Notes: a model not told the origin generated them from the letters alone. 64,000 nucleotides of DNA from Tubulanus polymorphus (GCF_964204645.1 NC_134026.1:8951950-9015949), one strand, 5' to 3'; numbered from the stretch's first letter, positions 24,271 to 58,272 are shown. A program made the numbers and translations.

Positions 24271-25415
24271 AGCGCTTAGAATAAGAGCTCGATAACACCC
24301 AGCCTATATAACTACTAGCTCTAGTTTGTTTATCAAAACACCTGTTGCCAGCGTTGCCATAGCGGCAGACGATGCCTGTTGAAACAGGACGTATTGCACC
24401 ATACTGAATCACCGCAGACATATACTGTTGAGACAGGATGCATTGCAACATACTGGATCGCCGCACCCGCACCTATCCGCGGCACCTATCTTTAGGTAAA
24501 GAAAATGTCATACTGATCAAGAAGTCAATTGTCTTTTGCAAGTCAAACACCGGAAAGTGAGGAACCAGAAACGATGGATGTTAACACACCATCTCAAGAG
24601 ACTGTAAAAGATATAGACGACAAAAATATCGAAAAGCTTAAAAAACATTTGGATTACTATAAACAATTAGTAACAATTGTGGACGAAATAATAACAACTA
24701 AACAATCAACGATTCGAGAATTGCCGAAAATACCAACTCCGAGTTTAAAAACATTATTAGGAATTAAAGACAATTGAAACATTGTTATCGAAACAAACAA
24801 ATCATCTTTGGGATTTTATAATCTTTGGGAATTAAAGGGTTTGTTCTTTATCATTCTATCCAAACTGTATCCAAACGGGGCTCTCGATCTAGGCTCCGGC
24901 TTGTCAGTTCGGCCATTTTGCAGCAGCAGGAGCAGTAATAAAGCGACAGCAGCAGTACAGAGCATACATTGAAACCTACAAAACTACGACTTGAACTACA
25001 ACTTCAATTCGGTCTAAGTGAGGACCTAAGACTATTCCCGACAAAACGTAGTATTAGCTTACATCTTCAAGAATGGGCTGATCTCAACTGGCATAGGGAT
25101 AAGTTTCGTCATCAATTCATTGCAAGTATTGCACCAAGTGTGGAGGGGTCTTTTCATCAACGGGGTATAGAGATTGCGACTAGCAGCACAAGCAGATTTG
25201 GTGAACACTGAGCTGGACGCCAAACAATTCCTTCAGGGTGAGGGTAAAGGTATAAAAGTCATAGATGCATAGGATTTCTCTCTCGAAACACAATTAGGAG
25301 TTACAGTTTACAGTTCTAAATGTAAGTACCGTTTTTGTTGTTATCAAGACGTCGGGAAAGGTGTTACTTAATATGTTTAAGTGCTGTAATTCATATTTGA
25401 CAACTTGAACAATTT

Positions 25416-26090
25416 GAAAATGTCATACTGATCAAGAAGTCAATTGTCTTTTGCAAGTCAAACACCCGAAAGTGAGGAACCAGAAACGATGGATATAAAC
25501 ACACCATCTCAAGAGACCGTAAAAGAGATAGACGACAAAAATATCGAAAAGCTTAAGAAACATTTAGATTACTATAAACAATTAGTAACAATTGAGGACG
25601 AAATAATAACAACTAAACAATCAACGATTCGAGAATTGCCGAAAATACCAACTCCGAGTTTAAAAACATTATTAGGAATTAAAGACACTAGAAGCACATT
25701 GAGTGGTTATGAACACCACGAATACTTGAAATCAAAATTAACGGATTATAGAGATTTGTCAAACTTTCAAGAAATAGATGCGCATTCATTTTCGGAAATT
25801 AGTGATTTATTAAAATCTGAGTATGAAACATTGTTATCGAAACAAATAAATCATCTTTGGGATTTTATAATCTTTGAGAATTAAAGGGTTTGTTCTTTTT
25901 CATTCTATCCAAACTGTAAATATTTCATGGACTACTTGGGTTAAATAAAATATATGTATTAGTGTTGAGTATGAACGAAAAATTAGAAGAATTGGAAAAT
26001 TATACTCCTTTAAAAAATTTCAATTATTGGGTTTGCCATTTGCTACCATTATTAGTCATTTGAATGAAAATGAAAAATTCTTTGAAAATT
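25416..26090 (+). pseudogene. Uncharacterised repeated ORF ('ORF A') of the hairpin-ended element family
   Basis: KLKKHLDY...LWDFIIF...YERKIRRIGKL; homologues at 21620-21940, 24499-24870, 34288-35037 and 50708-51365. Confidence 0.65.
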
Positions 26091-26940: not shown

Positions 26941-27219
26941 CGTTTTCTAGCTATCTGTTGGCTGGGATGAACTAGACCACTCAGAGAAATTTTCTGATTT
27001 CATAAAAATAATTTAACAATGATACACCAGGGACAGTGAAGATAAATCGTAAGAAGTCGTCAACCTTAGAGATTGACACTAGGCTCGTTGTACGAAAGGA
27101 GCCCCTAACCCTGGTGGCACGGAAGTGGAGCCACCAACGACGGCAGCAGTTGGGGTTGGCGGAACCTCCACCACCACCACCAGCAGCTCCAGAGAACATC
27201 GAACAACAGCCTCCGAGTG

Positions 27220-27650
27220 GCAAAAAATCGAACGCATTGACATACATACTTTCGAACTAAGTGATGACCTACGACTATTCCCGACGAAACGTGGTATTAG
27301 TTTACATCTTCAAGAATGGGTTAATCGCGACTGGCATAGGGATAAATTCCGCCATCAATTCATTGCAAGTATTGCGTGTGTGTTATTATTACTATCATTA
27401 TCATTAGTAATATCATTCTACCACCTCTCATTTTTAGATGACTCAAAGACAAATTGACAATTGAAAATTTTAATAGGTTCAGTAGAAGGTCAACCCCTGA
27501 GGGAAAGATTTCCTTGCGGTCAGTGCAGGGCAATACTTGCCCATAAAAGATCCCGATCACACCATGTGAGGCGCGTATGCACTAATTTCAAACCAATATG
27601 CACCAAGTGCGGAGGGGTCTTTTCGTCAATGGTGTATAGAGATCATCACT
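27220..27650 (+). pseudogene. PC4-like ssDNA-binding fragment followed by C2H2 zinc fingers (Maverick/Polinton-associated)
   Basis: RIDIHTFELSDDLRLFPTKRGISLHLQEW resembles the PC4 core; FPCGQCRAILAHKRSRSHH...CTKCGGVF. Copies at ~25010, ~28465; finger region also at 46030-46200 next to the packaging ATPase. Confidence 0.6.
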
Positions 27651-29892: not shown

Positions 29893-30910
29893 CTATGGAG
29901 GTACACAAATGGCTAGCCGGCATGCAGAACCTAATTGATTGATGGGTATCTGTCGATCAATTCAGAACCATCGCACATAATTTCCAAAACAATCGGTACG
30001 ATCCGAGATCTTCTTTCGATACATTATCCTGGATACACGATTTCATATTCGAATCCAGGACATTAATATCAAACACAAAACGGTCTCTACACAAGAACTG
30101 ACAAGGCAGTATACATAATTGTCAAATTCCCGATATCCGAAACCAGTACCATTTTCAATGTTTATTCCATTTCTGCAATGCCTGTGCCGGTCAATGCGTC
30201 CTCCCACAATTGCACATTGATCAAAAACCACCCTGGCTATATCGGTGTATCCCAATCTGGTGATTTTTATACAGAATTTAATTCCAAAGAATTCTTACTG
30301 TGTGAAGGAAAGGGAATTGAAGTCTGCCCCACTGCACAATCACTGCGTTCACGAGCCGTGCCGTCGTGTGCCAGCGGACTGTTCTTTAATAATCACAAAC
30401 ACACCATGCAATTTTGTGATATAAGGAGTCAGGCTTGTTTGAAGCTCGACCTCGGTTCCAGGTCATACCTGGTAAGTGGATGAGAGGCCTCTTGGCCTGC
30501 CCTGGTAAACCTGCACAAGCCATCCTTTCTTGCCCCATGTGTCTGATACGATTGCCCGGCGGTTGCGGAATCACATTGGCCACTTCAAAATTCTCGCATA
30601 AATAAGTAGTTGTCATAATTCCACCACTACACCAATACACTCGAACCCTGTTAATCTCCCGGTGATATTATCATTCTTTAAACATATGACCCTCGACTGG
30701 AAGGGGAAACTTTTGGATCCTGCTACACACTCATTGAAAATACACCAGGTATTCTCCGAAATTAAACTCATTAGGGATAAATTGGAGAATGTAGCCCACG
30801 TAGACCGAGGATTCCAGACAGATTTTAATAAGATTGCCGCAAGAGGGCACAAGAAAGTAGAACTCTTCGCCAACCAGGATGGTGCACTGGCTGCCCCGCT
30901 GCTGAAGAAG
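29893..30910 (+). mobile_element. Gypsy env-like ORF3 (degenerate)
   Basis: Cys-patterned ectodomain (MPVPVNASSHNCTLI...PGYIGVS...CEGKGIEVCP...SCASGLF...C); homologous sequence at 40880-41260 lies downstream of the integrase-chromodomain stop and a splice acceptor (TTCTCTTACAG, ~40251). Related pieces at 27670-28160 and 28840-29280. Confidence 0.65.
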
Positions 30911-31625: not shown

Positions 31626-32080
31626 ATCTGATAAATCAAAGTTCTGTGACTGGCCAGGTAGTCAGTACTGGCTGATGATTTAGATTTTTTCGATGACGTG
31701 GTCTTCTTGGTATAAAACCTAGAGGAACACGACTCTTGCTCTCTTTTACTCACACCGTGGCAGTCATCAGGTCAGACGTTAAGATCCCATGAGATCACCT
31801 AGTTTAGTTGGAAAATTTGCATATATAGAGGTGATCGATAAATGGTGGAGGTCCCAGGCACACAACGACAACGACAAAACCAAGAATAATAACAGAACAA
31901 GAGGAAAGAATCAAAATGCAACACCAATATCCACTGAAACCAAACAGCATCAAAGAACGGCATCAACGGAAATAATTTTTTTGAAACGGCAGTGAAACTA
32001 AGTCACCATTATGAATGTGCCAGTACTTAATTATGATAGTCACAATCGGGCTTCATCTCCAGACTTTTTGTGCCAAATTC
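31625..32080 (+). mobile_element. Partial Gypsy LTR, tRNA-Ala-like PBS, leader and gag start
   Basis: Homologous to the LTR at 38045-38398; PBS TGGTGGAGG at 31843; ATG 32011 MNVPVLNYDSHNRASSPDFLCQI matches gag starts at 38550 and 42987. Confidence 0.8.
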
Positions 32081-32130
32081 ACTTGTGAGGGATGACCAAT
32101 CGACTGCGGAGACCAGTCAACAGTGGAGAC

Positions 32131-32896
32131 TTTTCCTTAGGGAAAGATTGGAGGCTAGTGAACAGTACATCCGAATTCTTGAGAGGAAAGTTTCTTACAT
32201 CAAGTACATTGTCCAAGCTATGTCATCTTTGTTTGTGCAGATTAACATGTTTAGGTTCTTTAAGGGATATAGAGCCAAAACAGCTCTTATATTCTTTTCA
32301 TTGATCTGTCATGGTGCCATTTACGCAACAGCATGTGAAAATGTACTACAAGCAGACACCATAACTGGAGAAAAGAGTCAACAAGTGTGGATACATATTA
32401 TGGATGAGGAACAATGTGTTAACATAGGATTACAGGCAGCCAGGAGACCTATACAATTTCATCTTGGAGAAGGACGGATAGCACAGGGAATAAAGTGTGA
32501 ATACCTGATACCAATGAAACTCCATCATATTGTTGTCTCTGAGTCAGCTTGCCCGGAGGAGAACCCAAGATATAGCACCATAGCCTCAGTATTTGTCACA
32601 CTGGAAGTGTGCTAAGGGGATGGGATAATGGATGCTATATTCTTGGAACTGGCCTCGTGGAAACCTGTGTCAACATAGCCAGCCACTCTAAAGAGGAGGC
32701 GAATTACGCCTGGGTTTATTCGATGAATCAGGTGGAGTTCGTCGCTGAATTAACAGTGGGAAAGGACTTGACTAAAAGCCATGCCACAATGATGGGAAAG
32801 GTTGAAGGACCTGGAGGATAAAAAATGGCACACTGTTAAAAAAACAGCTCTGGAATCTGGACATTTGAGGGAGAAGTTTGTAAAGTGATAGAGGGT
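32131..32896 (+). pseudogene. E: Endogenous flavi-like virus fragment: M C-terminus / signal sequence and N-terminal half of envelope glycoprotein E
   Basis: Hydrophobic KTALIFFSLICHGAIYA then Cys pattern C-x26-C...SESACP... and, after a frameshift, ICHTGSVLRGWDNGCYILGTGLVETC (32591-32668), matching the flavivirus fusion loop VCK...DRGWGNGCGLFGKG..VTC. Confidence 0.88.
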
Positions 32897-33260
32897 AGTA
32901 ATAGGGATTATACTCAGACTTGGGTTTCACTATCCAACTGAGTCTCAACTGATACATGGGACGCTCGAATTTATTTTTCATTTTTTACTCACTTGCCCCT
33001 TCAACCTTTGATATGAACCCCTATTATCCCTATTACTCTTATAATATTCATATATATGAATATGAATAACTTCTAAAATCAAATTTTAGTAAAAAAAAAT
33101 GGAGCCAGAACAATCACAAACTATCAATATTACAAATAAAACTGGTGTTATAAATATATACTACAAGAAATGTTCTAAATGTGAATTAGATAAATTAGCT
33201 ATAACAGAATTTAGTAAGCGTGAGATTAGCAAAGAGGGTTTTCAATATTGCTGCAAAATT
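32897..33260 (+). mobile_element. Damaged hairpin terminus plus truncated CxxC/HNH ORF start
   Basis: AGTAATAGGGA at 32897, partner arm ...TATTATCCCTATTACT at ~33037, then MEPEQSQTINIT...CSKC. Confidence 0.7.
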
Positions 33261-33269
33261 AGTATTAAA

Positions 33270-33940
33270 CTATTACTCAGGAAGATAAATATAATTATGA
33301 AGTACATTATAGAATGTTGAAGTTTTATTTGAATCAAGGAATGGTTCTAAAAAAAGTACATAGATATATTTCATTCAGTCAATGTAAATGGTTAGAAAAA
33401 TATATAGATTTTAACACCAAACAGAGAACTAAAGCTAAAACTGTTTTTGAGAAAGATTTCTTCAAACTAATGAATAATGCATTCTATGAAAATATTAGAA
33501 ATAGAAATGATATTGAGTTGGTTAGTAATGGTAAAAGAATTAGACATTTACAAACATATCCTAAATTTATTGGTAACAGAATATTTGATGAAAATTTAGC
33601 TGCAGTTAAAATGAGAAGAACTTCTATGAAATTTAATAAACCAATTTATATTGGAGCATCAGTTTTAGAAATATCAAAGCTATTGATGTATGAATTCTAT
33701 TATAACGTATTACAACCTCATTTAGTAGAAAAGCATATAGAAATCTTACATGCTGATACTGACAGTTACATATTAAAGATAAAAACTAATAACATAACAG
33801 ATGATTTGAAAACATTAAAACATCATTTTGATTTCAGTAATTCCTTTAAAGATCATGAATTGTTTAACAATGATAATAAAAAGGTGCCTGGTAAATTCAA
33901 AGATGAATTAGGAGGTGAAGAAATGATAGAGTTCATTGGA
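33270..33940 (+). pseudogene. Protein-primed family B DNA polymerase, C-terminal fragment (Maverick/Polinton type)
   Basis: YIDFNTKQR...FEKDFFKLMNNAFY, KPIYIGASVLEISKLLMYEFYY, DTDS, KKVPGKFKDE. Confidence 0.92.
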
Positions 33941-35329
33941 AGCTGTAACTATGTTATTTACAACAATTGGTTTAGCTATATCAAATTCATTTATGAAAAA
34001 CATGATTGTTTTCAATTGTAAAGAATTAATTAACTTCATCATAAAGAACGTCTGTTACCATCCAGGCAAACGTACAGAAATAATCAGTTTGGTCGAACGT
34101 GCGCCACGTCGGCAGTTAGAAATCAACATTCACATACATAGTACATATTGGATATTCTCTCTCAAAACACAGTTTACAGATCTAAATCTAAATTTAAGTA
34201 CCGTTTTTTGTAGTTATTATGAAGTAGGGAAACCTTTAAACATATTTAAGTACAGTAATTCATTTTCACGACATCTTTTAGATTAAAATGGAATACAAAG
34301 ATCGACCAGAAATTCCAAGACAACCATCGGAAGAGGAAAAAATGCTGCTGGATAGTTATTCACAGGATTCAACAGAAATGTAGGAGGAAGGAACTCAAGT
34401 TATTGACAATCAAACTATAAACAAATTACAAAAACATTTGGATTATCGTAAAGAAATGACGAAAATGTTGGGTGACGTAATTCATAATAAAAAATTACCA
34501 CGCGAACCACAATTACCAAAATTACCAACGACAAATCTGAAATTGCTGTTGGGGATCAAGGAATCTGAATTGCTGTCGGGACTCGAGAAATTGAAATGAG
34601 TGGAGAAGAGTTGAATAAGTTTTAAAAATCAAAATTAATTATTGAAACAGAACATTTAAATTTCCCAGAAATACGAAGTGAAGAAGTTAATTCATTTGAT
34701 AAAATTACTAATATATCAAAAATAAGTTATAAGACATTATTAAAAAGAAAAGCAAATCACTTATGGGATCACATCATTTTCGGGAGTTATTTGATTATAG
34801 GGTTTGACATGTTCGATAAAAAAAACTGAGGGGATTTCTTGGGGGGCTTGGGTAAAAAAGAATATAGAAATCAGCACCAGTTATGAAAGAAAACTGAGAA
34901 GAGTGGGAAGATTGATAGAATATGAAAAATTCCAATTATTAAGTTTAACATTTAGTGAAGTTGTCAACTATTTGCCAGAAATTGAAGAAATGATTGAAAA
35001 CGATTTAGTAATTAAAGAATTCTGGACAAAAATATAAATTATAACGCTGAAGATCTTTGTAATATAGATATCAAAAAATGTATTCTTGATTGTGTATATC
35101 TGCTTTAATATTGTATTGTTATGCATTAGTCGTTCGGTCGTTGTTGATGGCGACGGCTGTTCTGTATTGATTGGTTACTGTTCTATGTTTGAATGTTGTA
35201 GTTTACAGAATAAATTATATAATTGGCGCATGCACAGAAGCAAAAGCGGTCTTCTAGGACCGCTTTTCATTGTTCTATCTTCGATCACTAAAATTTGCAT
35301 AATAAATATATGTGTTTATGAAATTTGAA

Positions 35330-36420
35330 AGATCCTTATGCGCAAGGGTGCAACGAAAACTGTCAAGTCAATTACAGGATTGGCTAGGGTAGATTTTGAT
35401 TGTAATCTTTGGGAGAGGTCCAAGCATAACAATGTTTACCTGTTGCTTTTAAAGAATGGCAATGATTGGGAACTCAAAGTCATGCCAGAAGATCCAGCAA
35501 CCTTCTTGGACAGCCATATACAACAGAGATGGGAGGCATGGTACACAACCCTGAAAGAGATTTGAAGTGGGGAGAAGCGAAACCCAATGCTGCACATTTC
35601 TGGATTAAAACCATGGAAGGTAAGGATTATGAGATCAAACTTAAAACAAAAGAATTGTTAATGAGTGCTATCCAACAGGACTATGGTAAAGTCACAATTA
35701 AGGATTTGTATGTGTCTGTTGAGCTATCATGAAGACTAGGCATTAAGCCTACAAGATTGGAACTCGCTTCGACAACGAGTTGTAAGGGAGTGCCCTCAGT
35801 CAGAAGAAAAAGAGAGTGAAACTGATCAGATTCGTTTAGAGGATTTGGGACAAGAATCAATCCAGTGAATATGTATATGAAAAGGGACTACTATGTGAGA
35901 GTGGTGTACTATGCTTTTCCTTCTGGTGCTTTCTATGGACCTATGGATTATGCCGGGAGTAAGTATTCAGCGTCAGAGGTTGAGGCAGCTTATAGGACCC
36001 AGGTGCGTGGCAAGTGGGACATATATGGATACAACCACAATCATGTTTATAGTAACACCACCATATCATTCGACGGAAATTTTAGAGTGTATAGTTACAA
36101 CAACACTGAACAACCAAGAGGTGTTGTTGACAAACAGGGAGACCACTGTAAAGTCACATGGAAGGCAAACAATGGAACAATATCAAGTTCACACACTAAG
36201 GAACAAGTAGTTAGCATACAGAAGTTTGTCAAGGAGTTTGATGAATATGCTAAGCGTAACTATTATTATGAATGTTGAGCTTGAATATTATGCACCAATT
36301 GGCAATTTAACAAGGATGGGTGTCAGAATGAGTAAGATCAAAGTTGGTAGTGAAGAGTGGAAAGTGATTAGACCATTGAAAACCACTTTTTGTGAGACAG
36401 ATTCAGATTGTTTAAACTAG
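35330..36420 (+). pseudogene. NS1: Endogenous flavi-like virus NS1 (frameshifted)
   Basis: Ordered NS1 landmarks across frames: LKVMPEDPATFLDSHIQ (cf. YKFQPESPSKLASAIQ), RECP...IRLEDLG...NMYMK (cf. ECP...VEDYGFG...NIWLK), FYGP...YRTQVRGKW (cf. LAGP...YHTQITGPW), NTTI, VIRPLK (cf. MEIRPLK); ends TAG 36418-36420. Confidence 0.75.
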
Positions 36421-36772: not shown

Positions 36773-37700
36773 AGAATGTACATTTCGGGTGCGCCTAAGA
36801 AAATAACTGAAAGAGCCAAAGTACTGAAATCATACGTGAACACTATCATCAGGAAGAGCCACGAAAAGATCCACGATGCAAACTAGACCCTCCAGACTAT
36901 ACTGAAACCATGCAGAACCTTGGTAGGATAACAATATCATGTGGAAATTTTTGGAAGGACTCAATTCTATTATAGGGTTTGTCAACAATTGGACGTTGAC
37001 AGACACCAGCGCTGCAGGCACCTTTTCTGTGTATAAGAAAAAGGTGGACACAGTCACACCAGCCAACACCAACACACCAACAAACTTGAGGAAGAAGTGT
37101 GGGACACGATATCTGATGGAATTACCATGGAGACTTTCTCCATGCTCACCTTCGAGGAAGGAGTTGAGAGGCTGAAGAAGAAAGCAGCTGGTGGACTTCT
37201 TGATAAGAATTGGACAGAGGATCCTGAACATGAGTAAAGTTGAAGAGGAAATAGACAAGATTGTTTCTGGAAGACCTAGTAGAGGATGGGTTAACACCAT
37301 GGGGAAAAGAGAGAAGAAGAAGACTCCATGAAAAGGGAGTAGGCTGATTTCCTTCTATGACATAACCATACAAATTTTAGAACAGATGGTCTTCGGACCC
37401 CTCATGGACCATATAACCAGGAGAGAGAACAACCTTGTAGGAGTGGGACATATGAACCCAATGGATTATTTCCAACTCATGAGTGAGGAAGAACTTGAGT
37501 CAGGTAAACAAATCAACAGGGATATCGTATTCATAGCAGATGACACAGCTGGCTTTGATACCAGAATCAGAAGGAAAGACTTGGAAGAAGAATGTAGATT
37601 CATCACATCACGCCTCAATGGTAAAGCTAAGGATGTAGCCACAGGTCTATACCGCATGTATTCAAACCACATAACTCTACTCAAACGTCATAGAGCTGGT
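36773..37700 (+). pseudogene. NS5: Endogenous flavi-like virus NS5 fragment (end of methyltransferase through RdRp motif A)
   Basis: RMYISGA (cf. EMYWVSGA), LTDTSAAGTFSVYKKKVDT (cf. MTDTTPFGQQRVFKEKVDT), AAGG, NTMGKREKK...SRLI (37299), IADDTAGFDTRI (37536; cf. ADDTAGWDTRI); stops/frameshifts; truncated before GDD. Confidence 0.93.
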
Positions 37701-38044
37701 ATACGCGGAGGGTGACTTCGTTTGGCTTCACAATTCTAAAAACATTAAGGGCCTGACTAAGAAACTACTTCATCCTTATCATGGGCCCTATATTATTAGT
37801 AAAAAGGTTTCACCCGTAAACTATATTCTAAAGACCCATGCTGGTAGAGTATTAAGGGCTCCAGTTCATACTAATCGTTTAAAGATGTATACCCACACTG
37901 GAGATCGTACAATTGGGTTGCCCATAATTGATAACGACGATAAAGACGATAATGATGATGATTTTTCAGACCCGGACTATGATATTTTCCCTGTGGAATG
38001 TATTCTAAAGAAACGCACGCGTAAAGGAGTTCGTCAATACCTTG
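37700..38044 (+). mobile_element. Gypsy integrase C-terminus (GPY/F module) and N-half of a chromodomain
   Basis: GDFVWLHN...KKLLHPYHGPYIISKKVSPVNY...VHTNRLKMY, acidic linker, FPVECILKKRTRKGVRQYLV; chromodomain resumes at ~40123 (VKWAGDFPHSWEPANNIL). Confidence 0.85.
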
Positions 38045-44570: not shown

Positions 44571-45299
44571 ATTTTCTTGTCAATTCTCTGAGCTAGGAAT
44601 TTCACAACGGAACCCTGTATCACATTTCTTCTTCAGGTTCGACACCAGAGAGTTTGTTATTCCAGAGATGAAGTGGCACTCATCAGAAGAGCATTCGAAG
44701 GTTTCCGCCGCAGTATTGAGGATATCCGAAAAATCGTCGGGGGAAACCCTGAGATAAAGGCACTGGTCAAGAAATACCACAATGGCCTAGAGAAACCTAT
44801 TGTTCTAATATCGGAACAACATAGAAGTAGGGGGAAGGCCGTTGGGCCTAAGCGCTAACAACCAGATCATAAGTTGACAATACATCAATTTTGTAAATAA
44901 TTTTTCTCTTTGTGGTTGCGATGAAATGCTTTCTTTTATTTTCATTGACATCCTTGACAGTGGAAGAGTTTGCTACTCAAAGAGATGAGGCGGTGCTCAT
45001 TAGAAAAGAGTTCAAAGGTTTCCGACGGAGTATTGACGATATTCGAAAAAAATCGGCAGGCGAAACTATCAAATTATATTTAAGCAAAATTTAGAGTTTG
45101 TTTCATTCATTTGACGAGTACTTGGATAGCACCGGAGTGGATGTATGGCCATTAGGGCTGGGGTTTTTCAGTGGGAATATGTTTGGACATGTGATGATAT
45201 CAGTGAAATGTGCCCTTCATGTATGTTGTAGGATATTACAGATGAAAATTCCAATATTGTTGAGCTGGTGGTAGTAGGTGTAGATACGCAAGAGGACGT

Positions 45300-45437
45300 A
45301 TTCATGCACACTTCACAAATAACTTTCACTAGTCCGTTCGGTGATGATGATAGAATCGCATTGCGCATATTTTTCTTTCCATTAAATAAAAGTCTTAAAT
45401 GCGGCGCGTATTCCTTCAGATGTGAATGATGCTTCAT
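45300..45437 (-). pseudogene. Small conserved Maverick/Polinton ORF fragment
   Basis: HLRLLFNGKKNMRNAILSSSPNGLVKVICEVCMN; directly downstream of the ATPase. Confidence 0.55.
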
Positions 45438-45509
45438 TTCAACAATTGATAACGATTAAATTAGAAATTGTACTATCTAATACTTTTTATCTTATAATAA
45501 ATATGATAT

Positions 45510-45960
45510 CTATCGCTGGGAAATATTCGTGTACGTAATCGACATTTTGTCCAAAGTTTGTGGTTTGAAATCGCAGAATAGATACCCACGTGGAGAAATT
45601 GAGGTGGCATCCCTAAAAGCTTCCTCGAGCGATTTGCCTAACCCGGGACTGCATCGCTTAAGTTTCACATGAAGTCTATACCTAGGATGCTTGAATAGAA
45701 CTATATAATGTATGTTTAATGATATAGTTCGGAAATGAGGTCCTCTTGGGAAAAGGGTTTGTGATATGAGAATCACTTGAAGTTTCCTGTGATGAATGCC
45801 ACGCATAAAAATAGTCTCCAATAATTTAGGGTCACACTCATTCAAGATATTGTCTAGAATAAGTAGTTTTGTTGTCTCGGAACACGCCAAACTTTCGTTA
45901 ACTAAGTTACTAACTATTACACCATCGATACGTTGATAATGCCAATCGTTTTTAAAGATT
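45510..45960 (-). pseudogene. Maverick/Polinton A32-like packaging ATPase, C-terminal part
   Basis: Degenerate Walker B LLILDN, FMRGIHHR...ILISQ.LF, RTISLNIHYIVLFKHPR, AFRDAT..PRGYLFCD. Confidence 0.85.
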
Positions 45961-48329
45961 TCTGCTATTATTCTCATTATCATCATCGTTAATATATCAT
46001 TCTATTACCTCTCACTCGGAAGTGTGGAAGGAATCCCAACGAGGGAAAGATTCCCGTGCGATCAATGCGGGGCAATATTTGCTCACAAAAGCTCATGATC
46101 CCGCCATGACAAGAGGGTACATGGGCATTTTAAACCCACATGCGCCAGATGTGGAGGGATCTTTTCGACGACGGCGTATAGAGACCGTCACTACGCCCAT
46201 TGTTCGAAAAGAACCCCTCCTGCGCTGGTGAGCCATTGACGGCGACATTAGAATATGTCGGAGATGTTCTCGAAATTCCGGACATCGATGAATTGCTTCA
46301 ACCACTGTTCCCAGACTTGCCGAGGACGTTCGGGGCTGGAGGGGGGCTTTGTAGCGGAACAGCGGGTTTCCTTTCTGTTACAGAGTCCAACTCCAGTCCC
46401 GACCTCTTTTAGAGCTTGTCGACCCTTTTACCTGTATTTTATATGTCCTTTTATATTGCTTGATATCGTGTCTATTTCAACTATTTTTGCATTCGCGAAT
46501 TCATTTATTCATTTCTTTTGCCAGCTTCCCCCGTGAGGTGTCGCTCGCGAGGGGAATCCTCGATACACACTGTTGGTAAATGTTGGCTCCGAGCCGGCTG
46601 CGGTGCTCGTTGCCGGGCCGGTCGATGCGCCCGTCTCCTGGTGAATATTTTCAACGTGCCTCATTGTTGAGTCGGAGGGGAGACACGACTGATTCACAAC
46701 TCCGTGAGGGTAAGACGCTTGGAGAATTCTCTCTAATTTCCTACCGGAATCCTAGCGCGACCGGGGAAGGACCGGCGGTGTCGCGGACCTTCTCGAGTTG
46801 GAAGGCAAACCGTCGTGTTCTGAACCGGTCTTGTTTCGCTTGTCTCGTATATCGCGCCTATAATATGTCTAACTTAAGAGCGTCATATCGCTATTCGCCC
46901 TCGGTTCCATCCGAGGGCGCCGTTAACTTGTAAACTGTATGCACGAATTATTGACGTTGATCGTGGGGTCAAACACTAGTTCCCCGCGACCGTATTACCG
47001 CTATTCGCCCTCGGTTCCGTCCCAGGGCATTCTGTATAAATGTTTGAAGTCCCTCCTATCGATAGTGTTTCGCGCGTTGTAGATATTGTAGTACATGTAG
47101 AATTCTTTCAAGGAGTCTCCTCGATTCCTTTTCGTTATATGACTCGGATATTATTCGTATTAGAATTTAAGCTTTATTATTCTTAATTTTCGCTTTTTGT
47201 GATCTAGCAAGATCGGTCGTACTCTGAGGCTGCGGGACTGTGTGTCCTTGGACTGTGTCCTTTTAACTAGACTGTGTGTCTGATTTGACTTTTTATTTCT
47301 ACTGTGAAGTTACGTTGATTCTTTTAAGACATTGTACATAGCTTGTAAATATATCTTTTTCGTTACGATTAAATCCACCGTAGTGGACCTATGATCATAT
47401 ATACATTCACCTCTGAATTTCGTTCTTTGGGTTTTAGTCCACTTCCTGAGGCATTCTGACCACTCCCGTGATTTCAACTTTTTCCGCGTGAGGAGAGGCG
47501 CCCTCCTGCGAGGATTCGTTCGACGACTTAGCCACTTGTGTGAGGATGATAATCTCCCTGACGGAGGTGGTGATCCACCCCTTTTCGGACTCCCTCCTAG
47601 AGTCCGTTCGACATCAGCGAACTTATGTAGCCACGTCTAATTTTTGCCCCTCGTTGTTCACGCTACCACGAGGAACTCGGGGAATCACCTTACCGGAAGC
47701 GTGCAAACCCGCTTCCCTGAGGAGACTTTGTGTCGCGATACGATTCCCTCACCCTTTACGCTACAATGGAACCTCCCCATCTCCACCTCCACCGCCTGCA
47801 GTACCATTACCGCTGCCTCCAACGCCGCCAGCAGCAGTACCACCACTACTACCACCACCACCACCGCCGCCAGCAGTAGCAGTACCAGCAGATATGCAAG
47901 GGGACTGTGAGTGGGAGGAACTTCCTGATCTCAGCGAGGAAACCCGGGTGTATAAACAAAATCGATCTAGGTCACGTCACTCCTTATCGGTGAATTGAGG
48001 TGAGGTTGTGTAAACAAAGTAGGGCAAAATTGACCGGTATACCTTACTATACATGACTCAGTGGATATAATGGCGATATAGAGAGACAATTTGAAGCTGT
48101 GGTTGGCCCCAGGGGTACCTGAAGGACCCGGATGAAGGTAAAAGATTATTTTTTTAACATTTTTGGGGGCCCTAACGACTCCAGAATTGCTAGATCAACC
48201 AGCGGAATCATCCTATTTGAGTGTAGGGAAGGGTATTAGACCGTCTAGAAGTATGATAACCCGTTATTTTTTGAAAACAAATTTTTCGAAATAAATTTAG
48301 CACAGGTTCACGATCTGAAATTAAGAAAG

Positions 48330-49539
48330 TTCGCATCCAAAGAGTTTTAAGTAGATTGGGTGGGATAAAATGGTTTACCAGCATTCATGTTGTGCTGGAA
48401 AAAGACGTAGACGGTGTACCTCAGCACAGGACAGTCTTTTTTACAAGCCATACTCGAAGTGCCTTCAATGTAAATCAGTTTGATGAGCTCTTAGAACAGG
48501 CTAAGAATAAGATGGTTCAATTACTAGAACAACATAATACTGAGGGTACTGGTTGGAGGTTTGATCATGTAGTCGTTCTCGACCTTCATCTCGGCATGTA
48601 CCAACCATTGAGTGGGGGATCATATATACCCTCTCCTCGGGTGATCGTCGCTCGAGGTGGGGTAATAAACATTGTAAACTACGATGACAAATGCCTCCTT
48701 TGATCGGTTGTAGCCCAATTACACCATGTGGATACAAACCCCCAACAAGTAGTCAAGTATTAACGGTACAAGGACGAATTGAATATGAACAATATCAATT
48801 ATCCAATGACCGTAGAACAAATACCCATATTCGAACGGCTGAACAATATATCAATTAACGTATTTGCCTATGAAGATGGGAATATTTTTGTCGATGAAGA
48901 CAATACTCATTACTGTCTTATCAATAACTTGAGTAGATTTTTATCCCACCTGAATAAGAGAAAAGCTCAATGTTTTTGGTGTTTCAGATGTTTAAATTCC
49001 TTCATTACGCAGGTTAACCTGGACACACACTCGGTTCTGTATTCAAGGAATACAAAGGACAATCATGCCGTCGACAGATGAGAACATACACAAATTTGAA
49101 AATGTTGCAAAACAGCATCCGCTCCCCTATGTTATTTATGCTGATTTCGAAATGTTTTTGAAACCAATACAGGGGTGTAATTTGAATCGGGATCAATCTT
49201 GGACATATTGATATCAGGTTCATGAACCATGCGGATTTTGTTTTTAAAGTCGTTGGCCCTGACATCAGACATTCCCACCCGACAGTCCTATATAGAGGAG
49301 ACGATGTTATGAAGACGTTTCTATCATCTCTCCTCGAAAAAGCTGAGGAGATCTTGGAAGAATACAAACATCGCCAACCTTTGGTTATGAACGACGTCGG
49401 TGAAGCACACTTCAATTCTACTGATATTTGTCATATTTGTAAGAAAATTATAAATGAGAGGAAATGTCGGGATCATGATCATATAACCGGTAAATACAGA
49501 GACCCAGCTTGTAATTCGTGCAATCTAAGCTATCGGGTT
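48330..49539 (+). pseudogene. Protein-primed PolB N-terminal region, interrupted; continues at 56943-57085
   Basis: EGTGWRF...YQPLSGGSYIP, INIVNYDDKC, HYCLINNLSR, CFRCLNSF, VIYADFE, CHIC...RDHDHITGKYR..ACNSCNL; rejoined frame reads NLSYRV-PNFIPVLFHNLKSYDSH. Confidence 0.9.
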
Positions 49540-49897
49540 AGTAATAGGGATAATAGGCTTTCATACCAAAGGTCGAACGGTCGAGCTCATAAAAAATAAA
49601 AAATAAATTCTCGCACACTCATATTTATTTTTCATTTTTTACTCACTAGCCCTTTCAACCTTTGATATGAAAGCCTATTATCCCTATTACTCTTAAAATA
49701 TTCATTTACATGGATAAAATATAGGTATGAATTACATATAAAAGTAATTAGAAAAGTGGGGTTTCAAGCCAGAGGTCGGAGGTCGAGCTCACTTATAAAT
49801 AGATATATAGATATATTTTAAACATATTTCAATATTTATATTTGTATGAGTTAGATTTTTAAACATTAAAAGTGTTACTAAAGTGTGATTGAAATAA

Positions 49898-49900
<3 letters not shown>

Positions 49901-49991
<91 letters not shown>
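49901..49991. repeat. (TA)n microsatellite
   Basis: Directly visible. Confidence 0.97.
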
Positions 49992-49994
<3 letters not shown>

Positions 49995-50707
49995 GATATA
50001 ATACATAGCATTTGCTTATACTAGAACATGATTCTATTTGAGCCTATATACATTTCATGTAAAGAGCTATGGAATAAATCTATAAATTCACAGCTGTCAC
50101 AGCTGTTACTATGACGCCGAGACATATGAGTCATAATACTGCAAACGCGTTAGATCATTCTAGAAATCGCACCGGAACTGAATAGATGATGCAACATAAC
50201 GCTTAGGATATTCTATCTCTCGAAACGCAATTAGGAGTTTATAGTTTACAATTCTAAATCTAAATGTAAGTACTGTTTTTTGTAGTTATTAGGGCTATTA
50301 AATATGAAACCTTTAGATATATTTAAGTGTATTTTGTATATCTTTTAGATAGCTAGAGTTACCATAACAGTAGACGGGGTTTATTGCGTAATAATTAATA
50401 GTTTCCGGTTTTTGAATTAAATGTAAGTACTGTTTTTTGTTGTTATTAAGAAGTCGGGAAAAGGGGTTACTAAATATGAAACCTTTAAGTGCATTTGACA
50501 ACTACAACTTCATACAGTTAATTCTATTTTACGTTAGATGGATAATAACTTGAACTATAATAAGTTATAATAATTAGAAACGATAGACTTGAAAATATTT
50601 ATATCATTTAATATCGTAGTTCCTGTTCTACCGCTGATATCTTTTAGTTGAATAAAATCAAGAAGTGATAGAGAACTCAAGATACTCCTTCTGAGGAATC
50701 AACAGCA

Positions 50708-51365
50708 ATGGAAGACGAACCAATGGAAATGGGCGCTGAAGTAAAAGAATCTCTAGATATAGACGACGAAACTTTAGAAGTTAAAAAACATTTAGATTAC
50801 CACCAAGAAATGACATTAATTTTTAAAAAAATAATAGAAAACCAGCAATCAAGCGTAACATCATTACCGAAAAGACCAACAACCAATGTAGAAATATTGT
50901 TAAGACTAAGAGGAACAAAAACTAAAAAGAAAATGAGTGGAAATGAGTTAAATAAGTTTTTAAAATCAAAATAATCAAATGAAACAGATGTAAGTTTTAA
51001 AGAAATAGAAGGTGTAACAACATTTAATGAAATAACTGTTTTATTGAAAAAAAAATTATTGAACCTTGTTATTTAAAAAAGCAAAGTATTTATGGGATTA
51101 TATCATTTTCGGGGATTATTTAAATTGGGGATTTTTAATGTTTAATAAACAAACTGCGGGGATTTCTTGGGCTTCTTGGGTTAAAAAATATATAAGTATT
51201 AGTGCCGGGCATGAAAGAAAATTAAGAAGCGTAGGGAGATTAATTACATATAAAAGATTCCAATTTTTAAGTTTGTCATTTTCTGATATAGTAAAATATT
51301 TAAACGATATTGAAAAAATGCTTGACAATGATCCAGAAATTGAAAAGTTCTGGTTGGAATTATAA
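50708..51365 (+). pseudogene. ORF A copy within the 7.4-kb element
   Basis: KKHLDYH...LWDYIIFGDYL...SWASWVKKYISISAGHERKLRSVGRL; function unknown. Confidence 0.65.
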
Positions 51366-52062
51366 ATCAAATGATGTATTAGTTGAAACTATAAATTTTG
51401 TCAATACAACGACCGAACATACTTGTATATGTATTGTGTAAATCTGCTTGGTGAATGTTCTATGTTCGGTCGTTTCAATTATGATTAGCGCATGCGCATT
51501 AAGCAAAAGCGCGCCTGTATGTGCGCTTTTGCCTAATGCGAACACATTTTGATATTTTATGTTCAGTCGTTTCTATTTGCATAATGAATATACAATTATG
51601 CGTTTGAATTTTCTATGATCGGTTGTTTCTATTTTACAGAATGAATATATAATTATGATTAGCGCATGCGCATTAAGCAAAAGCGCGCCTGTATGCGCGC
51701 TTTTGCCTAATGCGAACACGTTTTGATATTTTATGTTCAGTCGTTTCAAATATGATTAGCGCATTAAGCAAAAGCGCTCCTATAAGAGCGGTTTTGCCTA
51801 ATGCGAACACGTTTTGATATTTTATGTCGGTTGTTTCTATTTTACAGAATTTACAGAATGAATATATAATTATGATTAGCCCATGCGCATTAGGCAAAAG
51901 CGCGCCTGTATGCGCGCTTTTGCCCAGTGGTATGATTTAGATATCAAGGAACTGAAACGACTTATCAAAAGCAGCGAGGAATGAAAAAGGATGACGTTGG
52001 TCGAAGAAATGGAAGAGGATTCTAAAATATTAACCAATTTAGTAAAAAAATATGTATAATAA

Positions 52063-52735
52063 ATGGAACCAGAACAACCACAAACTATCAATATTACAAA
52101 TAACACTGGTGTTATAAATATATACTACAAGAAGTGTTCTAAGTGTGAATTAGATAAATTAGCTATAACAGAATTTAGTAAGCGTAAGATTAGCAAAGAT
52201 GGTTTTCAATATTGCTGTAAAACTTGTCTTAAACTATATACCAAACAATATCGGGAAGATAATAGAGAAGCTTATAATGATTATATGACAGAATATATGA
52301 GAGAAAGATATCAAACAGATCTTAATTTTAGATTGAAACAATGTTTAAGGACTAGATTAACACAATTATTCAACAAAGAAACACATTCAGAAACACTAAA
52401 CATCTAATTTGTTGGGTTGTACAGATAAATTTCTTAAATCATGGATAATATATCAATTAGATAGTCAAATGAATATAGATAATTATGGAGATTATTTTCA
52501 TATTGATCATACGTTACCGATATCTAAATTTAACATGAATGATGAATACAATAAAAAACTTATTTGGAATTGGAAAAATTTAAGACCTCTTGAAAAGAAA
52601 GAAAATTAAATAAAATTTAATACACTAGATTTACAGTTATATTTAGAACAGTTAACAAAGGCAAAGAAATTTATTGATCAATGGAACAATGATCCGAATA
52701 ATGAACAATACGTTGAATCTTTAATGAGTGGTTAA
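52063..52735 (+). pseudogene. CxxC + HNH-type endonuclease resembling those of large DNA viruses (frameshifted)
   Basis: KKCSKC...KDGFQYCCKTC, TDLNFRLKQCLRTRL, LGC, YFHIDHTLPISKF...WNWKNLRPLEKKEN. Confidence 0.75.
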
Positions 52736-53610
52736 AGATTAATATATCTCAAATAAAACATAATAAAAAAACAATAACTTCAACTATCCATTATTTCTAT
52801 TTGAATTTTTGATATTTTCTTTTACAATTCTTTTCAAAAGAGAATACTTTATATCACAAATAAAAAATACTAAAAAAACAATAACTAATACTAAAATTCT
52901 TTAACTGAACTAAGCTAGTATTAACCCAAAGAGATGCTAATATCATTTTATAATACTTATAATATTTTTTTCGCTTTTTTCTCTAATATAAATGTCAAAG
53001 AAATCGAGTAAGAATAATACCGATATTGAAAAAACATTAGATAATAAATGGATCAGTACCAAAAATCTTGATTATAGTTGTTTATTAGTTGATGTAGAGC
53101 CGTTTGAAAAACGGCAAATTCATCGTCTGCTAACCGCGTATATTGAAAACCGACTACTAGCGCCGCCGCCACAAAAGCGCAAATGTTTTTAATGTGATCG
53201 TGATTATTCAATATGGACTGAAATAATTCGGACAGGCGTTTTTCCTTCCTTTATTGATAATATATTGGGTTTCTAGAAGTAGGGCAAAATGTCAATTCGA
53301 AAGTAACGCCGTAGACAGAGAGCTGAGTTCTATTGTACTGCCGGGTAGCCCGGGGGTTGTTTAGGTTTTGGCTATGATAAGAAAATTGATAATTGACGTA
53401 TTTTTGTCAAGTAACCTAGCCTGAGGCCGTAGTGTCACACTGAGAGGCTTGATTGCGCATAGTAACTACAGGCGTCAATCTCGGGGATTCAGTATATTAA
53501 TTACCATACACGATGCCCGCGCGCAATTAGAATCTTATCAACGATGCGGTCTGTTTTGGTTAATCTAGTTCATATCTTTGCTGGTAGTCTTATGCTACAG
53601 ATGCAAAGAG

Positions 53611-55905
53611 GATGGCGGATGACTGAAGTCAAAATTCTACGCTCGCGAAAAAAGAGAAAAAACGAGTGATCGGAAAGAGATGTGCTGTTTGGGGATGCGG
53701 GAATACCAATGCTAATTCAGGATTGGGCATTCATGGTTTCCCAGATCGCGAGAAATCACCTGTGTGGTTTAAGTCATGGTGTAGCATTATCAAACACACT
53801 CGAGCAGATTTCACCTATACGAAAACCGGATCATTCGTATGTACGGACCACTTCGATGACGAGCAATGCAACCGAAAGAAATATAAAATGATGAAGGAAA
53901 TAAACCCGACTTGGTGATTTCAGTGGCTTCTCGAGCCAGGTGCTGTGCCATCCATTGCTAGAATGCCTAAGAAGCCAGTACACGGTGCTCCTGTTCCATC
54001 AACGTCATTAGCAGCGCGGCGGCAACGAGGGCCGGAATCAACTACTAAATCAGAAAATATGTCAAAACGGACAGCTGCCGAAAAAAGGACACGGAAAAGG
54101 GTAATTATCTTATTCTTAATGTTCGTTAATCTTTTTACCCTATTTCCATTTTTGTTTCTTTGTTTGATCAGGGTATTCTTTCATGTCCCGGCGCCGGTGT
54201 GACATTATCTGCCCAATAAATAAATTTGAATTTGACTTGACAAGCCACTCATGACTCAGTTGGCGGTCCCGGTGTAGTCTGAATATTGACCCCATAGGCA
54301 CATGTGGTTATGCCAGGGTAAACTTAGATAAGTGGTATGTGTATTTGAACAGCTTAGGAAGACTGAGTCGAGTGATATCAATTATCTAGGCCTACTTTCT
54401 ACAAAACAATTCAATCCAATTAAATTTATATCATCCGAGCAGTAGGCCTAAAACAAGTTTCACGATTCTGGAGGGTCCCCAAGCTACTACACACCCCATG
54501 GCCGAACTCCGTGCCAAAAAGAATGAATACTAATTGATATTCTGCTTATAATTTACATTTAGCGGGATTGAGAGTATGAATGATGAAGTCACTACTGATC
54601 CTCATTTGTGATTTCTCAGATTTTCTCAGTCTCGCTCTGTATCATTATGATTCCTTTGCTCAAAAGATGTTATGCATGTTGTATTTTGGCGCTACAACGT
54701 ATACGACAAGAGCCAATGCTGTCATTGATGATTTATGTCATGATCGATATTGAGTGATTTTTGATTGTCATACTTATTTCAGCTAGCCAATGATGCAATA
54801 TCAGACGATAGGTATGATGATAGAGAATTTCTTATGCATCAAGAGTCTGAAGCAGCTGAAGATGAAGGTGCTGGTGAAATCCATCATCAAGACCTTGATA
54901 CAGTACAGGTTAGTTTTGCTGCCCATATGATTGTCAATACTGAATTTTTCAAATGACTCCGACACAATTGGCTTATCAAAACCCATATCGAAATCAAGTT
55001 CGTACAATAAAAAATGCTGTTTTAACCCTAAAAGGACATTATCAGTAACCTCATTAAATAATTGAGGCCTACTATTATTTGTTTTGGCTGAGAAATGTAA
55101 ATCAATCGAAAATCTTATTTGTGTTATATTTTTAAGAAGTAGGCCCACTATAGGCCTATCACTCTTGGGTTGCAGTTTTAGCTGTCCGGTGAAGCCTTGA
55201 CAAAGCCTATGTAACGTGAATTAAATCATCTCTTTTTAGACCCACAGTAACAAGTCCGCTCAGGCAAACTTGAGGCCTCGACATAGATCGGCGGCCATTC
55301 AAGTGAATAGAAGACACAAAACGTTCGATAGAGGTATGTTCTAATGCTTTTATTCATTAGCAATGAGTTATGTTGATGTATTATATGGTAGTTATTGGGG
55401 TTTTTTTTCAATTATAGGGACTCAGAATGGTTCTCCGGTGATTGAAGTTCAAGAATCAGGATCATTGGATGTAGTCAATGCAGGTAAATAGACTCAGTTT
55501 CTCCTTTTGTGTTTGTGTGTTATCAGTCATACAAAATTATTCATTGAAGAGAATTTACTGATTCATGCCACATGAAGAATCCCTATAATAATTGTAGAGG
55601 CCCACTCAAATGTTGAAAAGCTTTTTTATTCAATGGAAGCAGTTATATTGATGTCAAACTATAGTAATGATTTGATACAATTACATGTCAAGGAGTTCAT
55701 ATTCAATTTTTTTTTTATTTATGAAGGAACCCAAACTGACAGTGAAGAGTTGTGGTTGTGAATGTGCTTGTGGATCAAAAAAACTAACCTGTAGTCGTAG
55801 ATCGTCCACCTCTGACATGGAAGACGAATATATCGATAACCCACATGATGTCGATTATACGCCAGATTCCGATAGTGAAGATGATGCAATAAGTGTCATC
55901 TATTG
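53611..55905 (+). mobile_element. Spliced THAP-domain gene fragment, probably the 5' part of a DNA transposon
   Basis: RCAVWGCGN...HGFP...W...VCTDHF...AVPSI (C2CH THAP with AVPS box); donor at ~54101, acidic exons at 54783-54908 and ~55728-55905; in-frame stop. Confidence 0.75.
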
Positions 55906-56704
55906 GTTTTGATTTAGTTAACTTATTATATTTTGTGTTAAAAACATGTAAAGTCATAAATATTATTTCATCAAATATTAAACCAGACCTTTCAAAATAT
56001 TTCTCTTCTATTTTATTTTTTACTTCATTATAACATTTATCTAATTTATCATCTATATGTTGTTTAGATATTATATGTTGTGAATGAGAATTTATATTAT
56101 ATATTGGTTTATCTTCAGATTTTATAAACTTTACTTTAACTGATATACTAATTTTAGAGTATTCAACATCAGTAATTATTTTTATAATATTTTTCATATT
56201 TTCTAAATGTTTTTTATTTTCTTCTAATGTTTTTCCTTTATGAAATTTAAACTCAATAGCTGCTGGACCAATATCACTTTTAAATGCTTCGTTATCTCTA
56301 TATCTTTTTTTATTATCTAATGAATTAATATAATTTCTTACATCTTCCATGTATGGTCTTTTATTGTTTAATTTATTTCTTATTCTTTTAATTGTCTCAT
56401 GTTTCTTATCATTATCAAAAAAATCTTCACCTAAAATATCATTATTCATATTTCTAATATGACTTTTAGATTTTAAATGTTCATTATAATATCTTTTATC
56501 ACTGAATGATTGATTACATGTATCACATTTGTATGTTTCTTTTTCATTCTTTAATTCATCTAATTTAGTTTCTAATATATCATCTTCATATTCTAGTTTC
56601 AATTTATTCTCTAAATGTGTTTTAGTTTTATTGTGTCTTGCTTTTTGAGATTTATCTATATTGATATTACATGTTGGACAGTAGTACTTCTTATTTGCTT
56701 CCAT
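55906..56704 (-). pseudogene. Zinc-finger N-terminus of a PolB-type ORF, truncated
   Basis: YYCPTC...HNKTKTH, YKCDTCNQSF...HLKSKSH, ERSGLIFDEIIFMTLHVF (same motif class as EGTGWRF at 48540); starts just inside the right hairpin. Confidence 0.7.
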
Positions 56705-58272
56705 TTTAATATCAAATTTTTTTTTTTAATTGATTTTAGAAGTTATTCATTTATATGTTATTCATATATATGAATATTTTAAGAGTAATAGGGGAAATAG
56801 GGGTTCAGGTTAAAGGTTGAAGGGGCGAGTGAGTAAAAAATGAAAAATAAATTCGAGTGTGCGAGAATTTATTTTTTCATTTTTTATGAGCTCGACCGTT
56901 CGACCTTTGGCCTGAACCCCTATTTCCCCTATTACTCGGGTTCCTAATTTCATACCTGTGTTATTCCATAACTTGAAGAGTTATGACAGTCATGAAATTA
57001 TTAGATCGTTGGGCTTGGTTGAATTTCGGGGGTATAAAATTTCAATGATCCCAACAAATACTGAAAAGTTTATCGGATTTTGGTTGGTGGTTAGTATGGC
57101 TTGTTATATTATTGTGGTTAATAATGGGTATTCTGCTTTTCCAGAGCCTTATTTCACCTTATTACACCTATTTTGAGTTACGGAAGTGAGATTTGGTGTC
57201 ATTTTTCCATGTCTAAGTTATGTAACGATAACTTCATGGACGTCTGTCATAAAGTAATTGGGGAGAAGGTCTTACTCAAATTAGGTAGATACCTCCTATC
57301 TGCCGTCAGAGGTGAATTGGGCCAATTACATAAATTTATGTACTGCTAGGAGGGAGGAGTTGCTTGTTAAAGTTCCCCTCCAGCAGAAAGCCTTGTACAC
57401 TAATTAAACTGCCGTGTTGGGCGGTTTCTTTTTTAGTTGTCTTGTCTTGTAAGTACACATAGTATGTTCATTGACATGTATTGCCCATTTGTATTTGTAT
57501 CCTAAGGTATCAAAAAATGAATTGAATTGTCTGACAGATGATGGCCTTTTATACTTGAACTCGGCCATGAACAACACTAATACACTTCGTACGTAGATCC
57601 AAACACGGCAAATTCCAAAAGCAGAGAGAGACTTGGATAAATGAAGAAAAATGCATAATAGGATCACGAAACGTTGACACATTGGTACCATGTATGAAAT
57701 TTCTGCATGAAATACAGCTAAATATAATAACTATGCTTGAAAGCACACTCGTAGTTTGAAATAGAACAGGGATCATTCATTTATTACGTATGCATGAAAT
57801 TTGACTTTCTCTACCATGTATGCAAAATCGGCCATTTTTTCATATACATTAAGCATTACAGTACACAATTGCACTTACCCCTCCACTAATGCGTACGTGA
57901 ATGAATTAATTATCCCACAATAATGAGATGATTATCATATCGTATGAGCAACGATTTTGATATAGATGTATATTGTCCTACTTTATTGTATATGTTGATT
58001 AGATTGTATTATATGGAAGCCCCGATACGACAACCAAATTACAGATAACGACTTACACAAATTAAAGATAACAACCCACACTTTAGAAATCCAATTTTAC
58101 GAGTTATGTTAACGATTACCCACCACCATGAACTCCCTACATTTTGTCAGTGCGGGCGAGGTCAAAGTTTTATATAATTACAGGAAGTGGTTATTTTGCG
58201 GGATATACGGTTATGGTCCACAAAAAGTTATCTAGTGAGCTGTTCACTGTTGTTGTTGGAATCTCTCATCGC

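Follow-up and report, generated by a model that had tools for sequence, protein, structure and literature searches.

The window analysed here is a 64,000-nucleotide (nt) stretch of one strand of the Tubulanus polymorphus genome (GCF_964204645.1 NC_134026.1:8951950-9015949; positions are counted from its first letter), and it harbours at 49540-56936 a 7,397-bp, hairpin-ended element (starting with AGT and ending with ACT) that lies within a decayed polymerase gene (PolB). We regard this element as probably a deleted, rearranged and non-autonomous member of a distinct, AT-rich lineage of Mavericks (Polintons). The features of the element and its target, including open reading frames (ORFs), are:

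48458-49539, plus strand: target, left part of a decayed PolB gene of a different Maverick lineage, with an endonuclease VII domain (Pfam and locus-ORF search)
49534-49539, unstranded: target site duplication, left copy, CGGGTT (read from the sequence; uninterrupted site in four of four runs)
49540-49755, plus strand: left terminal inverted repeat, about 217 nt, with a hairpin at 49540-49691 whose last 26 nt pair perfectly
49901-50000, unstranded: (AT)n microsatellite
50201-50487, plus strand: duplicated non-coding unit upstream of ORF A (further copies at 25267, 31119, 34147 and 42121)
50672-51365, plus strand: ORF A, broken by a stop at 50972-50974 and a frame change near 51050
51455-51964, unstranded: four imperfect copies of a GC-rich palindrome of about 46 nt, each in a repeat of about 97 nt
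52063-52732, plus strand: endonuclease VII/HNH-type nuclease gene, broken by a frame change near 52400 and a stop at 52607-52609
52992-53050, plus strand: 5′ remnant (first ~20 codons) of the ORF of 211 amino acids (aa) that follows the nuclease in the metagenomic relative L026
53051-55894, plus strand: low-copy insert of about 2.8 kb and higher GC content (39% against 23-28%), carrying a THAP gene's 5′ part (left boundary approximate)
55895-56704, minus strand: N-terminal fifth of PolB, with two zinc fingers and a predicted terminal-protein domain, stopping before the protease domain
56722-56936, minus strand: right terminal inverted repeat, with a hairpin at 56784-56936 whose last 26 nt pair perfectly
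56937-56942, unstranded: target site duplication, right copy, CGGGTT (read from the sequence)
56937-57110, plus strand: target PolB gene, right part (locus-ORF search)

An earlier note on this stretch had reported a 6-bp duplication of CGGGTT and Maverick-type ends, and both hold in the sequence: the two copies were located, the duplication has the length known from Mavericks/Polintons, and the left and right terminal repeats align with each other over 217 nt at 86% identity. The insertion that it placed at 49540-56942 is likewise real, although that interval includes one copy of the duplication, the element proper ending at 56936. The element tip reads AGTAAT, and the AGT...ACT pair is as in Mavericks, without the exact (AGT)2 tips that accompany 6-bp duplications and AGT...ACT-type ends in vertebrate Mavericks (as described in the available part of PMC8097293). 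A joint from 49534 to 56938, skipping 7,403 bases with five shared letters, was present in all four sequencing runs (four reads in X5, of which about 12% of the reads were examined, and one contig each in X1, X2 and X3; together at most three samples from two studies). The uninterrupted state with a single CGGGTT exists, and it may be either an allele or, since the target itself is repeated, a paralogous copy of the target.

The two flanks match consecutive residues of the intact Maverick PolBs of L002 (534-615 and 614-671) and L004 (567-654 and 653-708), and therefore the insertion interrupts a PolB gene, as had been claimed. This gene carries other stops and frame changes, and its homology fades near 57110. 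Judged by their best matches (P0055, P0044 and P0023 for the target, P0001-P0003 for the PolB of the element), the two polymerases are of different lineages. A packaging-ATPase-like remnant at 45522-45833 (minus strand; E 5e-14 to L024:1072-1464) suggests that the target belongs to an older Maverick. The wider interval 45171-46001 (minus strand) holds, besides this remnant, a small neighbouring ORF, and both probably derive from the older Maverick holding the target PolB. That the element came to lie in the PolB gene of another Maverick seems incidental: because the window is dense in decayed elements, an insertion in one of them is unremarkable.

Domain and homology matches confirm the cargo listed previously (ORF A, an HNH-type nuclease, a zinc-finger/PolB N-terminus and a THAP fragment) and add the remnant gene at 52992, which the earlier note had missed; at the DNA level, window positions 52933-53038 align with L026 5090-5193 at 70% over 108 nt. 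The nuclease matches Pfam HNH_4 at only E 0.038, its intact relatives match the endonuclease VII of PHROG 1035 (E 1e-24 and 6e-12), its structure model is poor (predicted local distance difference test 49.5), a sequence search found no match among solved structures, and an Atlas feature search returned unnamed viral clusters together with HNH clusters at 0.86-0.88. ORF A belongs to an unnamed family (about 200-270 aa, 76 clusters) whose profile matches L002:937-1569, an accessory gene of a capsid-bearing Maverick (E 3e-61), and its closest relative (63%, measured against the copy at 34288) is an annotated protein of Tubulanus polymorphus. Nineteen of 20 relatives of ORF A are without a Pfam family, an Atlas search with the relative from L002 returned no family, and ORF A was not seen in three partial close relatives of the element (L025, L026 and L028). 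At ~35230 a palindrome related to those at 51455-51964 likewise follows ORF A. Within the low-copy insert the THAP domain spans 53627-53914 (Pfam E 1.6e-9), and by eye the insert (53051-55894) is surrounded by no terminal inverted repeat or duplication of its own.

The PolB piece (55895-56704, minus strand) matches residues 1-276 of the L025 PolB at 63% and was modelled as two zinc fingers plus an alpha/beta domain resembling the little-finger fold of Y-family polymerases (Z 9.2, root-mean-square deviation 3.2, 110 residues aligned, on the predicted structure). Foldseek gave no match in the PDB at E<=0.001 (the best stood at 4.7e-3), and its top rows were all Y-family polymerases. Such a fold is reported, in the part of PMC11161782 that was accessible, as a signature of Polinton terminal proteins, and the piece is predicted to hold a terminal-protein domain. 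Integrase, capsid and ATPase genes, whose absence had also been noted earlier, were not found inside the element when the ORFs of 29 loci (capsid-bearing Mavericks included) were searched against the window. The 7.4-kb copy has neither its own integrase, nor a whole PolB, nor the virion genes and 15-20 kb of an intact Maverick, and it is not a PolB replicon, because only about a fifth of PolB is present.

Five metagenomic loci (four of them close) served for comparison. A search with the PolB piece retrieved two full-length proteins (66% and 52%); together with six others they stood apart in a comparison with P0001, at 43-100%. L028 runs from flank through a 257-nt hairpin (190-446, AGT start, z -11.7), a 121-aa ORF and an intact PolB to the nuclease; L025 has the same order, with half a hairpin at the contig start; and L026 carries PolB, the nuclease, the 211-aa ORF, a 129-aa ORF and an rve integrase (6216-7154, E 6.5e-9). 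L025 and L026 are 99.6% identical over their 5.1-kb overlap, L025 ending earlier. PolB is whole in L025 and L028. Among intact relatives, polymerase and exonuclease motifs are kept in all seven examined, and so is the protease Cys motif (7/7). A separate nuclease adjoins PolB in all three relatives long enough to include it. Pieces of the window resemble these relatives at 66-84% in aa and ~78% in DNA, and the element preserves the order of L026 for its nuclease, spacer and the beginning of the 211-aa ORF. The L026 integrase groups with those of L002, L004, L010, L015, L018 and L024 (support 99/100, 16 rows). A PolB phylogeny using 33270-33940, which the earlier note had proposed as a check, was run as a quick tree (78 of 84 rows kept, plus window fragment 33272-33940; P0008 and rows without a usable core omitted); it joins the fragment with P0001-P0003 (support 100 in the Shimodaira-Hasegawa-like approximate likelihood ratio test, SH-aLRT) and, in the wider clade, with P0004-P0007 (SH-aLRT 99).

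Polintons are defined by a PolB that is protein-primed (pPolB) together with an rve integrase (available text of PMC5499653), the polymerase bearing terminal-protein and protease domains (PMC11161782, same limit as above). The family shows the 6-bp duplication, long terminal inverted repeats, a pPolB with terminal-protein domain and, in L026, the rve integrase of a Maverick lineage. The parent lineage has its own integrase, and the copy is best read as derived from it by deletion, the PolB part having been inverted. In a viral collection that includes capsid-bearing Mavericks, the PolB of this clade, the integrase and the 211-aa ORF had no close relative, the distant matches being 22 Maverick/virophage-like loci at 27-39%. 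The small family ORF showed no likeness to L004:4158-4463, and a capsid family search of the L023 genome bin returned nothing (0/1), its positive control being silent too.

Two further observations concern the relatives. Most gene starts of the lineage, in L025, L026, L028 and at window 52063 and 52992, have an A-rich run followed by TAAATG (nine of ten starts in the three loci), an arrangement frequent in L002 and L010 as well and so not lineage-specific. P0010-P0016 are aphid (Uroleucon) PolB relatives annotated with an rve integrase domain in the same polypeptide, either a fusion or a gene-model artefact.

Each end of the element is a hairpin of ~152 nt (DNA fold z -13.1 on the left and -19.2 on the right, with none of 200 shuffles as good), and when the 64-kb window was scanned for 25-nt arms within 320 nt, these two ends were the sole result. 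Over the first 26 nt the outer arm pairs with the inner arm at 26/26 positions on the left, 26/26 on the right and 24/26 in L028. The left and right ends agree with each other at 20 of these 26 positions, and all six differences are mirrored in the partner arm. The arm of L028 agrees with those of the element at 15-19 of 26 positions, its hairpin being longer and of different loop, with matched tips. In the X5 reads, partner positions vary alike (49550/49681 at 51%/53%, 49555/49676 at 48%/47%, 49565/49666 at 38%/44%). The four readable ends in the window are in a single orientation. No flank-type loose end was seen in X5 behind 49691 among the 6 of 210 listed (the lowest with 443 reads, against 1,795 before 49540), nor an opposite-strand joint among the 15 of 49 joints listed; from those listed, the inverted (flop) hairpin is bounded at less than about a quarter of the common form, and no 1:1 flip/flop is visible in them.

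The same arm scan, applied to 30 loci, recovered the end of L028 together with palindromes internal to L010, L013, L014 and L017, and is no fair control for other Mavericks, as most of those contigs stop short of the element ends. L010 is a viral contig of Maverick-like type, with one of the integrases nearest to that of L026 (44%); in it a 184-nt palindrome with AGTAGTA-type arm ends lies at 4657-4840, between the integrase side and PolB. A short end-motif match in L030 was judged a chance occurrence in an unrelated contig.

The family is multi-copy, as had been proposed: in X5 at 90% identity, depth is ~12 on the flanks, 15-27 on the THAP insert and ~500-1,000 on the ends, the nuclease and the PolB N-terminus, and at 85% identity the outer arm reaches ~4,500. 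From the left tip, 1,795 X5 reads pass into flanks that agree at 0.34, which points to a family of tens to a few hundred ends (a rough figure) at many sites. These flanks, diverse as they are and not classified singly, give no sign of the bias toward Mavericks that had been suspected. Rearranged joints outnumber the four reads of the uninterrupted site in X5: 52716 to 50016 (144 reads), 52629/52631 to 56590/56588 on opposite strands (266 reads) and 49825 to 56749, also on opposite strands (91 reads). Sister fragments at 21585, 23416, 24501, 25416 and 32961 differ in gene order. Since other arrangements are supported by reads and the sisters vary in order, the scrambled versions were themselves multiplied, which fits movement in trans. 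X1 shows far more of the PolB N-terminus relative to the nuclease than X2 or X3, a contrast in summed contig depth, which does not measure copy number and carries no conclusion. The sister fragments extend over 21585-21945, 23416-26089 and 32961-35300, those at 23416 and 32961 starting within the hairpin, and 33272-33940 is the C-terminal catalytic part of a family PolB (84% to L028).

Taken as a whole, we find it likely that the element is a deleted, hairpin-ended Maverick copy, mobilised by an intact relative, and its hairpins are predicted to act as its own origins. Movement in trans is likely because the copy is without mobility genes, and we hold with considerable confidence that it is a non-autonomous derivative moved by the rve integrase of its family, which left the 6-bp duplication; copying and insertion would fall to a polymerase and an integrase supplied by an intact relative. 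The earlier note's idea of a PolB+HNH satellite integrated in trans stands in this second respect, though not in the first, as L026 shows that the family is not PolB+HNH only. That note had also reasoned that copies with integrase and capsid genes would speak for an ordinary Maverick with an internal deletion; of these, the integrase was found, in L026.

More tentatively, we propose that each end, on a displaced single strand, folds on itself. Strand displacement by protein-primed replication would free a single strand needing a duplex end for re-priming, and adenoviruses obtain such an end by pairing both genome ends. The standing Maverick model likewise has the left end pair with the right, and we know of no demonstration of Maverick excision or of its replication start. 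A folded end would offer terminal protein and polymerase a duplex for which the opposite end is not needed, and each terminal hairpin would be its own double-stranded origin for protein-primed replication. Under this model the last ~26 bp would remain matched inside each end as the left and right ends diverge, one orientation would persist, the terminal protein would be retained and any scrambled interior could be carried along. The nuclease would be a putative cutter of hairpins or cruciforms, or a passenger.

Several points weigh against this explanation. The paired frequencies are unphased, concern three of six pairs (40 of 114 rows listed) and are not independent events, because they trace back mostly to two end types that were inherited. 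Of the outer-arm reads, about half depart from the hairpin ahead of its loop or inside it (846 at 49596, 443 at 49603), and hairpin depth falls from ~4,500 on the outer arm to ~2,000 on the inner arm (X5, 85%); not every end is thus shown as a hairpin, and other end types exist. The integrase link comes from the single contig L026, off whose end the integrase runs, and both integrase and full PolB are known from metagenomic relatives, not from this host. The PolB clade stands apart from the animal-type Mavericks with capsids (L001, L002 and L004), and among viral rows it lies nearest to L019, which has a Sputnik-type capsid (a weak link, with support of 91 and long branches). The replication model draws its evidence from sequence only, and the preprint reporting terminal palindromes also offers, in its available part, an accidental fold-back origin (10.64898/2026.07.28.741278).

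That last idea, in which the hairpins are a historical accident of one ancestral fold-back duplication without present role, would suit the many ends that leave the hairpin early in the reads and has its precedent in the same preprint; six mirrored left/right differences and the matched tips of L028 would nevertheless need continued arm-to-arm copying or selection, and we judge it improbable. Only a little less doubtful is that the hairpins self-prime DNA synthesis in the manner of parvoviruses, the endonuclease VII/HNH-type protein opening the closed ends. The long terminal hairpins with matched tips and the resolvase-like nuclease beside PolB in all three relatives reaching that far speak for it, and the same model is proposed for protist virophages as well as polinton-like viruses (PLVs) in the accessible text of 10.64898/2026.07.28.741278. 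It sits poorly with the retained terminal-protein domain and protease motif, with the four readable window ends in one orientation, and with an inverted form that was not among the X5 rows listed and is bounded at less than about a quarter. One-orientation hairpin replication does occur in some parvoviruses.

As to the parent, the earlier note's satellite family of PolB and HNH nuclease, never with an integrase and favouring Mavericks as target, is very improbable: the element, L025 and L028 do show hairpin, PolB, nuclease and at most one small ORF, and the element does sit in a Maverick PolB gene, but L025 is 99.6% identical over 5.1 kb to the integrase-bearing L026 and merely ends earlier, the flanks are diverse, and the window is dense in decayed elements. 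The least unlikely of these alternatives is a compact parent of ~10-11 kb without capsid genes, a self-synthesizing transposon in which PolB, nuclease, integrase and several small genes lie between hairpin ends; the family would then be a kind of element in its own right instead of a shortened virus. No capsid, penton, ATPase or protease gene was found in the three relatives (5.9-7.2 kb), for the 19 clade PolB records that give a length the longest contigs measure 4.5-10.8 kb, and the PolB, integrase and 211-aa ORF of the clade are missing from the viral collection that holds capsid-bearing Mavericks (weak evidence in itself). Yet all three relative contigs are partial, relatives of the 211-aa ORF lie on contigs of 16,883 and 11,483 bp (sizes that would suit a full Maverick), and capsid-bearing Mavericks hold both the integrases with which that of L026 groups and, in one case, a relative of ORF A. 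The broader picture, an undescribed marine-invertebrate lineage of ~10-11 kb capsid-less transposons with self-folding independent origins that spawns scrambled non-autonomous families, is slightly less plausible still; a parent without capsid genes would give animals a rare example of a Maverick that has become purely a transposon.

The element, read as a deleted Maverick copy, resembles animal Mavericks/Polintons (polintoviruses, adintoviruses) in its 6-bp duplication, in its AGT...ACT ends, in the decay of most copies, in the pPolB of its family with terminal-protein and protease domains, and in the rve integrase of a close relative. It departs from them in being without integrase, capsid, ATPase and protease and keeping the first fifth of PolB only, in that each terminal repeat forms a long hairpin, with mirrored differences between the two ends, and in the stand-alone endonuclease VII/HNH-type gene after PolB. 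Parvoviruses have imperfect terminal hairpins of ~150 nt that differ between the ends, as here; unlike them, the element has an integrase-type duplication, and among the read rows listed no 1:1 flip/flop is visible. No HUH replication nickase was among the Pfam hits of the element or of the three partial relatives.

In Halocafeteria seosinensis, endogenous virophages and subtype 4 PLVs are described with palindromes in the terminal inverted repeats beside the duplication, preferentially with non-pPolB replicases, and hairpin priming is proposed there, not shown (10.64898/2026.07.28.741278, available part). Our element and its family share with them the position of the palindrome next to the duplication, the rve integrase and, for some, HNH genes, and differ by the animal host, by hairpins of 152-257 nt (against 52 nt in the example drawn) and by a pPolB with terminal protein kept. 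Nematode and oomycete pPolB2 Polintons have an HNH domain inside PolB (accessible sections of 10.1101/2023.08.22.554363), comparable to the endonuclease VII domain within PolB of the relatives and of the target gene; unlike them, the present family has a separate nuclease gene too, and hairpins go unmentioned in that paper. A literature search (with most subscription papers, Repbase and preprint supplements outside it) found no report of hairpin-ended pPolB Mavericks in animals, and no such Maverick ends are described in the available parts of PMC8502044, PMC11296320, 10.64898/2026.10.13.758929 and PMC13215967. The lineage, with its self-matched hairpin ends, is a new form of a known type, the Maverick, the element itself being a decayed derivative. 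With tips matched within and not between ends, and with the terminal protein kept, it offers a natural test of the end-pairing and the virophage hairpin models, and a high-copy family with an uninterrupted site in populations provides many natural ends to count.

Elsewhere in the window, 36927-37712 (plus strand) is, on its two Flavi_NS5 pieces (Pfam E 4.3e-9 and 0.019), an endogenous flavi-like virus fragment, cut off at ~37700 by a retrotransposon integrase tail; 35329-36278 and 32040-32821, without a family match, may be further flavi-like pieces. Another high-copy element lies at 57768-57884; hundreds of reads show numerous loose ends there and joints between opposite strands, and it is possibly a small fold-back element. 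A PC4-like domain occurs at 27083-27454 (plus strand, E 2.7e-6), with further copies at 25008 and 28466. An envelope fragment of baculovirus F-like type was detected at 30067-30480 (plus strand, E 1.4e-7), alongside THAP, retrotransposon and transposase remnants.

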